From NCBI RefSeq assembly GCF_055900595.2, contig NZ_CM148325.1: a stretch of DNA of 64,000 nt. One strand, 5' to 3'. Both the position numbers and the translations under genes were made by a program. Below, one piece after another: positions 6,239 through 36,165 of this stretch. The notes under the pieces were generated by a model. The model did not search any database. It saw nothing but the letters and a program-made list of their open reading frames with translations, and was not told the origin of the DNA. Each line of letters begins with the position of its first letter. Position 1 is the stretch's first letter.

Positions 6239-7330
6239 ATGCGTTTTCTGCGCCGACCAATATCGCTGCGCCAACGGCTGATATTGACCATCGGGGCCAT
6301 TTTGTTGGTGTTTGAGCTGATCAGCGTCTTCTGGCTATGGCATGAAAGTACCGAGCAGATTCAGCTGTTTGAGCAGGCGCTACGCGACAATCGTAACAAC
6401 GATCGCCACATCATGCGTGAGATCCGCGAGGCGGTCGCCAGCCTGATTGTCCCTGGCGTCTTTATGGTCAGCCTGACGCTATTTATCTGCTATCAGGCGG
6501 TACGCCGCATCACCCGCCCGCTGGCGGAGCTGCAAAAAGAGCTGGAAGCGCGCACCGCCGACAACTTAACGCCCATTGCCATTCACAGCGCCACCCTCGA
6601 AATCGAAGCGGTGGTTTCAGCGTTAAACGATCTGGTCAGTCGCCTGACCAACACGCTGGATAACGAAAGGTTGTTTACCGCTGACGTCGCGCACGAACTG
6701 CGAACGCCACTGGCGGGGGTGCGTTTGCATCTGGAACTGCTGGCGAAAACGCATCACATTGATGTAGCACCGTTAGTGGCACGACTTGATCAGATGATGG
6801 AGAGTGTCTCCCAGCTACTGCAACTGGCGCGTGCCGGACAGTCATTTTCTTCCGGTAATTATCAACATGTAAAACTGCTGGAAGATGTCATTCTCCCCTC
6901 GTATGACGAACTCAGTACCATGCTCGACCAGCGCCAGCAAACCCTGCTATTGCCAGAGAGCGCCGCCGACATCATCGTTCAGGGTGATGCAACCCTGCTG
7001 CGGATGTTATTGCGAAACCTGGTAGAAAATGCCCATCGTTACAGCCCGCAAGGCAGCAACATTATGATTAAGCTGCAAGAAGATGGCGGAGCGGTCATGG
7101 CCGTTGAAGATGAAGGACCGGGTATTGATGAGAGTAAATGCGGGGAGTTGAGTAAAGCGTTTGTACGTATGGACAGCCGTTATGGCGGGATTGGTCTGGG
7201 GTTAAGTATTGTCAGCCGCATTACACAGTTGCATCACGGGCAGTTTTTCCTGCAAAACCGGCAAGAGACTTCTGGCACACGGGCCTGGATACGGCTGAAA
7301 AAAGATCAGTACGTGGCAAACCAGATATAA
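6239..7330 (+). CDS. basS: Sensor histidine kinase BasS/PmrB
   Basis: 363 aa from the ATG at 6239 (six-frame ORF begins at 6230); two TM segments, H-box AHELRTPLA, HATPase region with GIGLGLSIV. Confidence 0.85.
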   Translation: MRFLRRPISLRQRLILTIGAILLVFELISVFWLWHESTEQIQLFEQALRDNRNNDRHIMREIREAVASLIVPGVFMVSLTLFICYQAVRRITRPLAELQKELEARTADNLTPIAIHSATLEIEAVVSALNDLVSRLTNTLDNERLFTADVAHELRTPLAGVRLHLELLAKTHHIDVAPLVARLDQMMESVSQLLQLARAGQSFSSGNYQHVKLLEDVILPSYDELSTMLDQRQQTLLLPESAADIIVQGDATLLRMLLRNLVENAHRYSPQGSNIMIKLQEDGGAVMAVEDEGPGIDESKCGELSKAFVRMDSRYGGIGLGLSIVSRITQLHHGQFFLQNRQETSGTRAWIRLKKDQYVANQI

Positions 7331-7395
7331 AGAAAGCTGCTGACCACCAGCACGCTGAACACGGTAGTTAAACTTTCATAAACACGGTTTTTCAT
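7306..7395 (-). CDS. pmrR: Small membrane peptide PmrR (29 aa: MKNRVYESLTTVFSVLVVSSFLYIWFATY)
   Basis: Translated by hand from the minus strand (not in the six-frame track); GGAGG Shine-Dalgarno 8 nt upstream; single hydrophobic helix; preceded by a PmrA box; 3' end overlaps basS antisense by ~25 nt. Confidence 0.6.
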   Translation of the reverse strand: MKNRVYESLTTVFSVLVVSSFLYIWFATY

Positions 7396-7439
7396 TGCAC
7401 TCTCCTCCGTTAACCTGGAGGAGAGTATGCGCGTCAGAG

Positions 7440-7456
7440 ATTAAGTGAACCTTAAG
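7440..7456 (-). promoter_or_regulatory. PmrA (BasR) box CTTAAG-N5-CTTAAT upstream of pmrR
   Basis: Minus strand reads cttaaggttcacttaat, a match to the PmrA direct-repeat consensus, ~45 bp upstream of the pmrR ATG. Confidence 0.5.
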
Positions 7457-7465
7457 AGTTCAATT

Positions 7466-13144: not shown

Positions 13145-13290
13145 TCGGTAGGCCGGATAAGGCGCTCGCGCCGCATCCGGCTACGGTGCCGACTGCCTGA
13201 TGCGACGCTCGCGCGTCTTATCAGGCCTACAAATTCTCGCACCATCCGGCAACGGTGCCTAATGCGACGCTTACCGAGTCTTATCAGCCC
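13145..13290. repeat. Cluster of REP (repetitive extragenic palindromic / BIME) units
   Basis: Repeated ggccggataaggcg...cgccgcatccggc and gcctgatgcgacgc...gtcttatcaggcctac motifs in alternating orientation. Confidence 0.8.
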
Positions 13291-24069: not shown

Positions 24070-24828
24070 ATGAGCCTGACCCTCACACTTACTGGCACTG
24101 GCGGCGCACAGGGTGTTCCCGCATGGGGCTGTGAGTGCGCGGCCTGCGCCAGAGCGCGGCGCTCACCGCAGTATCGCCGCCAGCCATGCAGCGGCGTCGT
24201 GAAGTTTAACGACGCGATCACCCTGATCGACGCCGGGCTGCACGGTCTCGCCGATCGCTGGTCGCCCGGATCGTTCCAGCAGTTTTTGCTGACACACTAC
24301 CATATGGATCACGTGCAGGGGCTGTTTCCGCTGCGCTGGGGCGTGGGCGATTCGATCCCGGTCTACGGCCCGCCGGATGAACAGGGCTGCGACGATCTGT
24401 TTAAACATCCGGGCCTGCTTGATTTCAGCCACACGGTGGAGCCATTTGTGATGTTTGATTTGCAGGGATTACAGGTCACGCCGCTGCCGCTCAACCATTC
24501 GAAACTCACTTTCGGCTATCTACTGGAAACGGCACATAGCCGGGTGGCGTGGCTGTCTGACACCGCAGGCCTGCCGGAAAAAACGGTGAAATTTTTACGC
24601 AATAATCAGCCGCAGGTGATGGTGATTGATTGCAGTCACCCACCGCGCGCGAATTCGCCACGCAATCACTGTGATTTAAACACCGTGCTGGCGCTGAATG
24701 AAGTTATCCGCTCGCCGCGCGTGGTTCTGACACATATCAGCCATCAGCTTGATGTGTGGCTGATGGAGAACGTACTGCCGTCAGGGTTTGAGGCGGGGTT
24801 TGATGGGATGGAGATTGGGGTGGAGTGA
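24070..24828 (+). CDS. phnP: Phosphoribosyl 1,2-cyclic phosphate phosphodiesterase PhnP (metallo-beta-lactamase fold)
   Basis: 252 aa; HxHxDH motif (THYHMDH). Confidence 0.85.
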
Positions 24829-24862
24829 TGGGTGAGGGGCGATGCCTGCTCTAAACTCAACA

Positions 24863-25192
24863 TCACCGCCCATACTCATCTTCCATTCTCCGCTCTTCAT
24901 CTTCTAGCTGCCGACGCTCCTGATCCAGCTGGCGCTGGCGATCGTCCAGCTGCCTGCGGCGATCTTCAAACTGGCGGCGGCGATCGTCATATTGTCTGCG
25001 CCGATCGTCGTTCACTTCACGCTGCCAGCCGTCGTCGCGCGAATCTTCATAGTCTCGCCCACGGTCAGGGTTATAAGCATCGTTAATCGCCTGCTGAATA
25101 TTACCAATGGTGTCGTCGATAATATCGGCCTGGGCCGGAACGGTGGACAGCGTGAGCAGGGTGAATAAAAGAAATAGCGGAAAACGTTTCAT
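24863..25192 (-). CDS. yjdP: Small secreted protein YjdP (signal peptide, charged Arg/Asp/Glu/Gln-rich repeats)
   Basis: 109 aa; N-terminal MKRFPLFLLFTLLTLSTVPAQA signal peptide, then low-complexity RRRQ/DDR repeats. Confidence 0.75.
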   Translation of the reverse strand: MKRFPLFLLFTLLTLSTVPAQADIIDDTIGNIQQAINDAYNPDRGRDYEDSRDDGWQREVNDDRRRQYDDRRRQFEDRRRQLDDRQRQLDQERRQLEDEERRMEDEYGR

Positions 25193-25260
25193 TAGCCAAC
25201 CTCAAAAAGAAACTCTATCCACATTAGTCATTACTCATCCATGCAAGTAGTGGATGAATC

Positions 25261-25578
25261 TCAATTTTTCCGCTGCTCTATTGCCGTAATCGCCTCCACA
25301 CGTTGTTGATGACGACCGCCTTCGTACTGCGCGCCCAGCCACGCATCCACAATCATTTTTGCCAGTTCGAGGCCAACCACTCGTGAACCAAAAGCCAGTG
25401 CAACTTCACTGGCGTAATGCGGATAATCAGTGCGCTCTGACGACCTGGTTTCTTTATCAATCCCCTCACTCATTGACCATGAATAAAAGGCTGGCACAGC
25501 AACGCAGAATCCTGCGGTGCCAGCGACATGACCGCCCATTGCTCCGGTACGTTTTTTAATAAGAAACACCGGTTGCAT
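25261..25578 (-). pseudogene. rpiB: Remnant of ribose-5-phosphate isomerase B gene (internally deleted, 5' part scrambled)
   Basis: C-terminal ~60 aa of the ORF (SSERTDYPHYASEVALAFGSRVVGLELAKMIVDAWLGAQYEGGRHQQRVEAITAIEQRKN) matches RpiB as I recall it, but the central ~50 residues, including the GTGVG...AANK active-site region, are missing and the N-terminus does not match. Confidence 0.55.
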
Positions 25579-25830
25579 TGATTAATTGTGCTCAGTATTT
25601 GCCGAAGTACAATATATATAATAAATATATAAAACACCTCATATTATTTACAGAGATAATAAATTCGCATACTTTTCCCTCTTCAGCACAAATGCCTAAT
25701 AAAATGGCTCGTTCCGCTCACACTTCCACTTATTAAAATCGCAATTTCCCAATTATGATAACGCCAGCTTTAAATGACGTATTTTGCATGGATTACATAT
25801 TTACGACACAAATGATAAATGGAGATTTAT

Positions 25831-32864: not shown

Positions 32865-32993
32865 AATGTCAGCCGCGTGATGGCTGTCACGCGGTATTTC
32901 GTTTCGTCACGTCAAAACTGACGACAGCCTGTTTTTCGTCAGAGTTTTGAACAAATAGTGCCCGTAATATCAGGGAATGACCCCAAATAAAAT

Positions 32994-33010
32994 GTGGCAT
33001 AAAAGATGCA
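32994..33010 (+). promoter_or_regulatory. Sigma-54 (-24/-12) promoter of fdhF
   Basis: tggcataaaagatgca fits the TGGCAC-N5-TTGCA spacing (GG and GC 10 bp apart), ~55 bp upstream of the fdhF ATG. Confidence 0.5.
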
Positions 33011-33061: not shown

Positions 33062-35209
33062 ATGAAAAAAGTCGTCACGGTTTGCCCCTATTGCGCATCA
33101 GGTTGCAAAATCAACCTGGTCGTCGATAACGGCAAAATCGTCCGGGCGGAGGCAGCGCAGGGGAAAACCAACCAGGGTACCCTGTGTCTGAAGGGTTATT
33201 ATGGCTGGGACTTCATTAACGATACCCAGATCCTGACCCCGCGCCTGAAAACCCCCATGATTCGTCGCCAGCGTGGCGGCAAACTCGAACCTGTTTCCTG
33301 GGATGAGGCACTGAATTACGTTGCCGAGCGCCTGAGCGCCATCAAAGAGAAGTACGGTCCGGATGCCATCCAGACGACCGGCTCCTCGCGTGGTACGGGT
33401 AACGAAACCAACTATGTAATGCAAAAATTTGCGCGCGCCGTTATTGGTACCAATAACGTTGACTGCTGCGCTCGTGTCTGACACGGCCCATCGGTTGCAG
33501 GTCTGCACCAATCGGTCGGTAATGGCGCAATGAGCAATGCTATTAACGAAATTGATAATACCGATTTAGTGTTCGTTTTCGGGTACAACCCGGCGGATTC
33601 CCACCCTATCGTGGCGAATCACGTAATTAACGCTAAACGTAACGGGGCGAAAATTATCGTCTGCGATCCGCGCAAAATTGAAACTGCGCGCATTGCTGAC
33701 ATGCACATTGCACTGAAAAACGGCTCGAATATCGCGCTGTTGAATGCGATGGGCCATGTCATTATTGAAGAAAATCTGTACGACAAAGCGTTCGTCGCTT
33801 CCCGTACAGAAGGCTTTGAAGAGTATCGTAAAATCGTTGAAGGCTACACGCCGGAGTCGGTTGAAGATATCACCGGCGTCAGCGCCAGTGAGATTCGTCA
33901 GGCGGCTCGGATGTATGCCCAGGCGAAAAGCGCCGCCATCCTGTGGGGCATGGGTGTAACCCAGTTCTACCAGGGCGTGGAAACCGTGCGTTCTCTGACC
34001 AGCCTCGCGATGCTGACTGGTAACCTCGGTAAGCCGCATGCGGGTGTAAACCCGGTTCGTGGGCAAAACAACGTGCAGGGTGCCTGCGATATGGGCGCGC
34101 TGCCAGATACTTACCCTGGCTACCAGTACGTGAAAGATCCGGCTAACCGCGAGAAATTCGCCAAAGCCTGGGGTGTAGAGAGTTTGCCAGCACATACCGG
34201 TTATCGCATCAGCGAGCTGCCGCATCGCGCAGCGCATGGTGAAGTGCGTGCCGCGTACATTATGGGCGAAGATCCGCTACAAACTGACGCGGAGCTGTCG
34301 GCAGTACGTAAAGCCTTTGAAGATCTGGAACTGGTCATCGTTCAGGACATCTTTATGACCAAAACCGCGTCGGCGGCGGATGTCATTTTACCGTCAACGT
34401 CGTGGGGCGAGCATGAAGGCGTGTTTACTGCGGCTGACCGTGGCTTCCAGCGTTTCTTCAAGGCGGTTGAACCGAAGTGGGATCTGAAAACGGACTGGCA
34501 GATTATCAGTGAAATCGCCACCCGTATGGGTTATCCGATGCACTACAACAACACCCAGGAGATCTGGGACGAGTTGCGTCACCTGTGCCCGGATTTCTAC
34601 GGTGCGACTTACGAGAAAATGGGCGAACTGGGCTTCATTCAGTGGCCTTGCCGCGATACTTCAGATGCCGATCAGGGGACTTCTTATTTGTTTAAAGAGA
34701 AGTTTGATACCCCGAACGGTCTGGCGCAGTTCTTCACCTGCGACTGGGTAGCGCCAATCGACAAACTCACCGACGAGTATCCGATGGTACTGTCAACGGT
34801 GCGTGAAGTCGGTCACTACTCTTGCCGTTCGATGACCGGTAACTGTGCGGCACTGGCGGCGCTGGCTGATGAACCTGGCTACGCACAAATCAATACCGAA
34901 GACGCCAAACGTCTGGGTATTGAAGATGAGGCATTGGTTTGGGTGCACTCGCGTAAAGGCAAAATTATCACCCGTGCGCAGGTCAGCGATCGTCCGAACA
35001 AAGGGGCGATTTACATGACCTACCAGTGGTGGATTGGTGCCTGTAACGAGCTGGTTACCGAAAACTTAAGCCCGATTACGAAAACGCCGGAATACAAATA
35101 CTGCGCCGTGCGCGTCGAGCCGATCGCCGATCAGCGCGCCGCCGAGCAGTACGTGATTGACGAGTACAACAAGTTGAAAACTCGCCTGCGCGAAGCGGCA
35201 TTGGCGTAA
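33062..35209 (+). CDS. fdhF: Formate dehydrogenase H (selenocysteine-containing; UGA at 33479-33481 decoded as Sec)
   Basis: Two same-frame ORFs (33062-33481 and 33530-35209) separated only by a TGA; joined product 715 aa; N-terminal Cys cluster CPYCASGC; SECIS hairpin immediately 3' of the UGA. Confidence 0.9.
33482..33525 (+). other. SECIS element (SelB-binding mRNA hairpin) directing Sec insertion at the fdhF UGA
   Basis: cacggcccatcggttgcaggtctgcaccaatcggtcggtaatggc immediately follows the in-frame TGA and matches the fdhF SECIS as I recall it. Confidence 0.7.
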
Positions 35210-35223
35210 TACAGTCCTTTCTA

Positions 35224-35250
35224 CAGCCTCCTGTTGGAGGCTGTTTTTTT
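35224..35250 (+). terminator. Rho-independent terminator after fdhF
   Basis: cagcctcctgttggaggctg followed by a T7 run. Confidence 0.7.
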
Positions 35251-35302
35251 ATCCATTCGAACTCTTTATACTGGTCACTCCCTACCCAATCGTATTATCA
35301 AA

Positions 35303-35994: not shown

Positions 35995-36165
35995 TAGGCC
36001 TGATAAGACGCGGCAAGCGTCGCATCAGGCATTGATGTCGGATGCGGCGTAAACGCCTTATCCGACCTACAAAATCACGCTAAATCAGGCTATTGCGCAG
36101 TCTGGCGTAGGCCTGATAAGACGCGGTAAGCGTCGCATCAGGCATCCACACATTGCCGGGTGTAT
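35995..36165. repeat. Cluster of REP/BIME units
   Basis: Three copies of gtaggcctgataagacgcg...cgtcgcatcaggc / ggatgcggcgtaaacgccttatccgacctac in alternating orientation. Confidence 0.85.

Follow-up and report, generated by a model that had tools for sequence, protein, structure and literature searches.

The fdhF gene is the founding textbook example of selenocysteine UGA recoding in bacteria, and its product, formate dehydrogenase H (FDH-H), is the formate-oxidising subunit of formate hydrogenlyase. UGA140 and the corresponding Sec140 of fdhF have been named in previous work, in which the SECIS of the gene was described as encoding amino acids 141-153, and both SelB binding and SECIS-dependent read-through were shown experimentally for a sequence identical to the one considered here (PMC4513850). 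According to a review, the fdhF SECIS is a 40-nt element with its upper stem-loop (nt 15-31) located 11 nt from the UGA, in which U17 and G23 are the contact sites of SelB and U17, G23 and U24 are the conserved bases (PMC8659212). The SECIS elements of archaea and eukaryotes have the same function, namely the recoding of UGA as selenocysteine, but they are positioned in the 3' UTR and depend on an additional binding protein (SBP2 in eukaryotes), whereas the SECIS of fdhF is part of the ORF, follows the UGA immediately and is recognised by SelB itself (PMC10778597).

In the window, i.e., the whole stretch of 64,000 nucleotides that was analysed, the gene in question is located on the + strand (Table 1) and, judged by its sequence, is the fdhF of E. 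coli. The list of open reading frames contains two + strand entries in the same frame, 33062..33481 (139 aa) and 33530..35209 (559 aa), and the TGA that ends the first, as read from the window sequence, is preceded by the codons GCT CGT GTC and followed by CAC GGC CCA in a stretch running on to GGT AAT GGC. From 33482 on the frame is open again, and the TGA is codon 140 in a frame of 716 codons, the translation of which contains this one internal stop in addition to the terminal stop and yields a product of 715 aa. The original prediction that a TGA splits the fdhF frame into two ORFs, and that naive ORF calling would mis-annotate the gene, was therefore borne out: the ORF list and the translation place the break at 33479-33481, and the list indeed cuts the gene in two. 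Two further ORFs were observed on the opposite strand of fdhF, 33098-33511 (-, 137 aa), which overlaps the SECIS, and 33566-34237 (-, 223 aa); these are probably the usual spurious ORFs facing a coding region.

Table 1. Positions of fdhF, its recoded codon, its SECIS element and its predicted transcription signals in the window.
Feature	Position	Strand	Basis
fdhF CDS, formate dehydrogenase H, 715 aa + stop, UGA read through	33062..35209	+	Translation, TIGR01591, PDB identity, RefSeq
UGA codon 140, recoded as selenocysteine, Mo-ligand residue in FDH-H	33479..33481	+	Aligns with PDB X140; PMC4513850
Full SECIS per Rfam SECIS_2, with outer 5-bp stem enclosing the UGA	33474..33528	+	87.1 bits; MFE -19.7 kcal/mol, same overall topology
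Classical SECIS, nt 1-42 with the UGA, encoding residues 141-153	33482..33520	+	Lower stem closes at 33481:33520 (MFE); PMC4513850
Apical stem-loop GGUUGCAGGUCUGCACC in its minimal 17-nt form (nt 15-31, the U of UGA being nt 1)	33493..33509	+	Sequence; PMC8659212; cross-genus pairs
Sigma-54-type -24/-12 promoter-like element TGGCATAAAAGATGCA	32995..33010	+	52 nt upstream of the fdhF ATG
Intrinsic-terminator-like hairpin and T-run	35223..35254	+	Scan: 9-bp stem, 6 GC pairs, tail TTTTTTTATCC

The identity of the product was established across the TGA, with Cys put at stop codon 140 for the protein searches. The translation matched NCBIfam TIGR01591 (formate dehydrogenase subunit alpha) in a single stretch that runs through the TGA (residues 6-685, profile positions 1-672 of 672) with 1095.7 bits against a cut-off of 666.25, i.e., a full-length match above the cut-off of the Fdh-alpha equivalog. 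In addition, an alignment of all 715 residues of the product with E. coli formate dehydrogenase H in PDB entries 1AA6, 1FDI, 1FDO, 2IV2 and 7Z0T shows 100% identity, with the sole mismatch at residue 140, where the deposited sequence has a non-standard residue X that aligns with the TGA codon. Codon 140 is accordingly the position of the Mo-coordinating Sec140 (X140 in 1AA6 and the others). RefSeq annotates a single fdhF CDS spanning the TGA on identical DNA, and in some RefSeq records the product is named 'formate dehydrogenase H subunit alpha, selenocysteine-containing'. In comparison with fdhF of E. coli K-12, the protein is 100% identical, the recoding element is without any difference, and the neighbourhood mdtNOP - fdhF - yjcO - gltP - nrf is shared. 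This unbroken homology, over residues 6-685 in TIGR01591 and residues 1-715 in the PDB sequences, also takes in the 16 codons between the TGA and the ATG at 33530, which is an internal Met in the family alignment. Thus, although the ORF list has two entries, the possibility that they are separate genes, one for a 139-aa protein and the other for a 559-aa protein starting at this ATG, is practically nil in our judgement, and it is at odds as well with the one CDS of RefSeq.

As for the element that would direct the recoding of this UGA, an Rfam scan of the whole window found SECIS_2 (RF01988) at 33474-33528 on the + strand. The match takes in all 55 positions of the model (1-55) and, at 87.1 bits, exceeds the gathering score of 70, with a window-wide E of 1.8e-17. 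By its covariance-model score the element is a member of the SECIS_2 family, and in the alignment the consensus is matched at every upper-case position, one covarying outer pair being given in lower case. When the U of UGA is numbered as position 1, the bulged U17 of the apical stem-loop is at 33495, the loop GGUC at 33500-33503 and G23/U24 at 33501-33502, and the spacer between the UGA and the apical stem-loop comprises 11 nt (33482-33492). The element is therefore placed inside the ORF and 3' of the in-frame UGA, with the 11-nt spacing and the stem-loop at nt 15-31, and the SelB-contact bases (bulged U17, loop G23 and U24) are all present in the sequence. The earlier proposal that the sequence following the UGA is the SelB-binding hairpin is supported both by the SECIS_2 threshold and by the presence of the bases (U17, G23 and U24) and the 11-nt spacer described as determinants in the literature, and its coordinates were right to a few bases, given that the 40-nt element stops at 33520 and the Rfam model covers 33474-33528. 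The stem-loop GGUUGCAGGUCUGCACC is the presumptive docking site of SelB in the source strain. A second Rfam family, SECIS_3 (RF01989, bacterial formate-dehydrogenase-type), overlaps the element at 33476-33534 and resembles it in having a UGA and then an apical GGUC-like loop, but its score of 35.8 bits falls short of the gathering score (63), and several pairs in the lower stem of the window element are non-standard; on this score, membership in SECIS_3 was rejected.

The folding energy of the hairpin is a different matter. The segment 33479-33525 folds as a stem-loop closing at 33481:33520 with an MFE of -14.9 kcal/mol, and 33474-33528, which includes the outer stem, has an MFE of -19.7 kcal/mol; neither is unusually stable, an equal or lower energy being reached by 27 of 200 dinucleotide shuffles of the former (z = -0.94) and by 25 of 200 of the latter (z = -1.23). 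RNA folding had been suggested as a check of the hairpin, and it returned the expected fold shape, while the stability was no different from that of the shuffles. Since real and shuffled sequences cannot be told apart in this respect, a stable-hairpin test discriminates poorly, and folding energy alone would not prove a SECIS, so that the case rests on other evidence. A thermodynamically exceptional hairpin, which was not seen in either segment, is no defining feature of the SECIS_2 family.

Comparison with complete E. coli genomes revealed that the DNA from 33000 to 35300 matches eight complete chromosomes at 100% identity and has a counterpart in 5,419 of 5,426 genomes. The same TGA in the same context recurs in 5,419 of the genomes; it is directly followed by a bona fide SECIS, it falls on the non-standard residue 140 of the crystal structures, and the 575 codons downstream of it are uninterrupted and agree fully (100%) with the functional enzyme, all of which speaks against a true nonsense mutation that has left fdhF a pseudogene with a 139-aa fragment. 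Such a mutation is in our opinion extremely improbable, even though a mechanical ORF call stops at 33481 and some ribosomes terminate at the UGA even in the wild type, the efficiency of recoding at this codon being about 30-40% in vivo (PMC4513850). Recoding of the UGA as selenocysteine is also in agreement with the distribution of the sel genes in the species, taken as a proxy for the source genome: of the 5,426 complete E. coli genomes, all but two carry tRNA-Sec (selC; 5,424) and all but one selA-selB (5,425; the query was located in NZ_AP018488.1), and in NZ_AP018488.1 selC and selAB co-occur with an fdhF segment identical to that of the window. Neither sel genes nor tRNA genes were found within the window (tRNA scan), as expected because selC sits elsewhere on the chromosome.

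At the DNA level, the whole fdhF gene is 95-99% identical to that of the window in 5,409 records and at least 99% identical in only 11. Compared with K-12 and other E. coli, the fdhF of the window is thus a rarer DNA allele, and all the differences are synonymous. For the 100 nt around the UGA, by comparison, an identity of at least 99% was seen in all but one of the 5,420 E. coli records (5,419), with thousands of genomes fully identical, and the higher conservation of this UGA-centred segment than of the whole gene fits an added constraint at the RNA level. Our analysis indicates that the fdhF UGA/SECIS feature, which has long been known, occurs in unaltered form in practically all E. coli genomes. 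The only one of the 5,420 records that differs by more than one base is 14EC007 (L002 201-300, homologous to 33450-33549), in which three synonymous third-position changes are found around the UGA, one converting an outer-stem U-G into C-G, one in an unpaired stretch and one outside the element. As further observations, fdhF is missing from seven and selC from two of the 5,426 complete genomes, four of the fdhF matches come from records with a plasmid label, and two copies occur in at least one genome.

To look beyond E. coli, GTDB was scanned, with one genome per species, for TGYGCNCGNGTNTGACAYGGNCC (Cys-Ala-Arg-Val-UGA-His-Gly-Pro), and at least 120 loci were retrieved, mostly from Enterobacterales, with the addition of Pasteurellaceae, Shewanella and a few others. 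Homologues of the 55 nt at 33474-33528 from other genera, comprising 47 distinct sequences among the matches listed, were aligned without gaps; columns 1-16 of this alignment are partly set by the search pattern. Among these 47 sequences, 89.9% of the cells form standard pairs in the structure with a bulged U17, as against 22.7-45.9% in a slid control in which the 3' partners were moved by 1-3 columns. Changes on both sides were observed at the apical pairs 15:31 (GC in 33, UA in 10, UG in two and CG in one of the 47) and 18:29 (UA in 34, AU in nine, CG in two, unpaired in two) and at pair 17:39. The double changes combine synonymous third-position changes in the 5' arm (Ser145, Val146) with the 3'-arm substitutions His150->Leu/Arg and Gln151->Lys, and the maintenance of pairing between a synonymous and an amino-acid-changing side is not predicted by protein constraint alone. 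The helix is thus kept by compensatory changes, while the number of covarying pairs among the 47 sequences (three with changes on both sides) is no more than in column shuffles (464/500); the cell-level and score measures exceed the column shuffles, although relatedness without structure can inflate such measures.

These data bear on the remaining explanation, in which the UGA is read through by a near-cognate Trp or Cys and the hairpin merely arises incidentally from the coding sequence. The conserved amino acids constrain most of the stem, so that conservation alone is ambiguous, and the stability of the hairpin is not above that of shuffles, both of which this explanation would accommodate. 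It does not account for the both-side changes, partly amino-acid-changing, that keep pairs 18:29 (UA/AU/CG) and 15:31 (GC/UA/CG), and it is further contradicted by the above-threshold match to Rfam SECIS_2, the near universality of selC and selAB in E. coli and the non-standard residue at 140 in the solved structures; we accord it a vanishingly small probability. By contrast, we are virtually certain that UGA140 of fdhF is read as selenocysteine with a SECIS directly downstream.

The steps by which this occurs are established knowledge for exactly this element. In the source strain, SelD would make selenophosphate, which SelA would use to convert Ser-tRNA(Sec), the selC product, to Sec-tRNA(Sec); SelB, together with GTP and Sec-tRNA(Sec), would then bind the apical stem-loop (nt 15-31) via its C-terminal domain, with the U17 bulge and G23/U24 involved. 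A ribosome arriving at the UGA would melt the lower stem, and the tethered SelB, competing with RF2, would bring Sec-tRNA(Sec) into the A site; the predicted outcome is the full-length 715-aa protein, in which Sec140 coordinates the molybdenum cofactor. For the source strain, we infer SelB binding and selenium incorporation from identity with the characterised sequence, and with the element intact the strain should make active formate hydrogenlyase when given selenium and molybdenum. The significance of the locus is one of annotation only, and it raises no new question: ORF-based pipelines that have no selenocysteine model split or pseudogenise fdhF, whereas curated ones, PGAP among them, bridge the TGA.

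The cross-genus alignment also allowed two registers of the apical helix to be compared. The register given by MFE and Rfam, with U17:A29 paired and U18 bulged, was rejected, for among the matches listed pair 17:29 fails in 11 of the 47 sequences and pair 18:29 in only two. The comparison favours U18:A29 with a bulged U17, judging from pairing across genera, and this is the register that the literature has for the fdhF SECIS (PMC8659212). Homologues from Pasteurellaceae, Shewanella and Morganellaceae (L004-L123) have the same CARV-U-HGP context, GGUC loop and apical helix geometry as the window element, but differ from it at pairs 15:31 and 18:29, where U-A/A-U or C-G is found instead.

Variations were also observed at SECIS position 30 (column 35 of alignment A2), which is G in L016, L017, L027 and L049 (Morganella, Hafnia, Edwardsiella and Proteus) and A in L081. 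With C30 replaced by G or A in these four genera and one MAG, the canonical G16:C30 pair is lost, and the MFE structure of the C30-less homologues is an uninterrupted apical helix of 6 bp in which U17 is not bulged. Should U17 indeed be unbulged there, the SelB of these lineages might recognise a differently shaped SECIS, a suggestion that we consider very unlikely; if true, it would amount to a minor instance of co-evolution of SelB with its RNA target, and may already be described. In addition, two contigs, each with an fdhF-type CARV-UGA-HGP site and a SECIS, were found in Pluralibacter gergoviae (L019/L020), in Cedecea neteri (L057/L058) and in Silvania (L063/L064 and L073/L074). The location of the two SECIS-bearing sites on different contigs points to two selenocysteine fdhF paralogues in these organisms, as compared with the one fdhF of E. 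coli (median of one place per genome).

The transcription unit of fdhF looks standard. The motif TGGCAYN5WTGCA has a single match in the window, the element TGGCATAAAAGATGCA upstream of the gene, against 0.42 expected by chance, and this element is presumably the known fdhF sigma-54 promoter. A scan for sigma-70 promoters upstream of fdhF on the + strand gave no match, which fits the predicted sigma-54 promoter. Repeats were noticed further upstream at 32902-32950, with TTTCGTCA occurring twice in direct orientation and an inverted repeat, TCAAAACT/AGTTTTGA; together with TGGCATAAAAGATGCA, these presumably represent the known FhlA-dependent promoter and upstream activating site. At the 3' end, the terminator-like hairpin (35223-35244) begins 14 nt after the fdhF stop codon, and another terminator-like hairpin follows mdtP at 32872-32895.

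On the identical stretch in RefSeq, fdhF is flanked by mdtN-mdtO-mdtP upstream and by yjcO, gltP and nrfG-A downstream. Over the 25 kb from 20000 to 44999, the window is at best 99.0% identical to any complete E. coli genome, whereas fdhF itself is 100% identical in eight genomes, which indicates, from these identity levels, a mosaic (recombinant) neighbourhood of the gene. The 25-kb query was recovered as one place with at least 80% coverage in only 3,273 of 5,425 genomes. Between phnP/yjdP and yjcS (24828-25819), only about 1 kb separates the end of the phn operon from yjcS, and in the closest genome the interval is occupied by yjdP and a 318-nt remnant of the RpiB family (L124 16865-17580). 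In K-12, the als/rpiR/rpiB sugar operon lies between the end of the phn operon and yjcS. The short gap with yjdP and the RpiB-family remnant suggests that this operon is absent from the window, and its absence fits the count of 3,273 genomes.

Several other RNA families were detected in the window. Rfam naRNA4 (CssrE) matched at 13151-13227 (+), 35997-36067 (-) and 46615-46686 (-) with 99.2, 79.0 and 76.9 bits, respectively; these are intergenic repeats of the REP/BIME type, one of which lies directly after yjcO, downstream of fdhF. Full-length matches were also obtained for the enterobacterial sRNAs STnc630 (182 bits) and sraL (157 bits), at 7299-7464 (-) and 53941-54080 (+).
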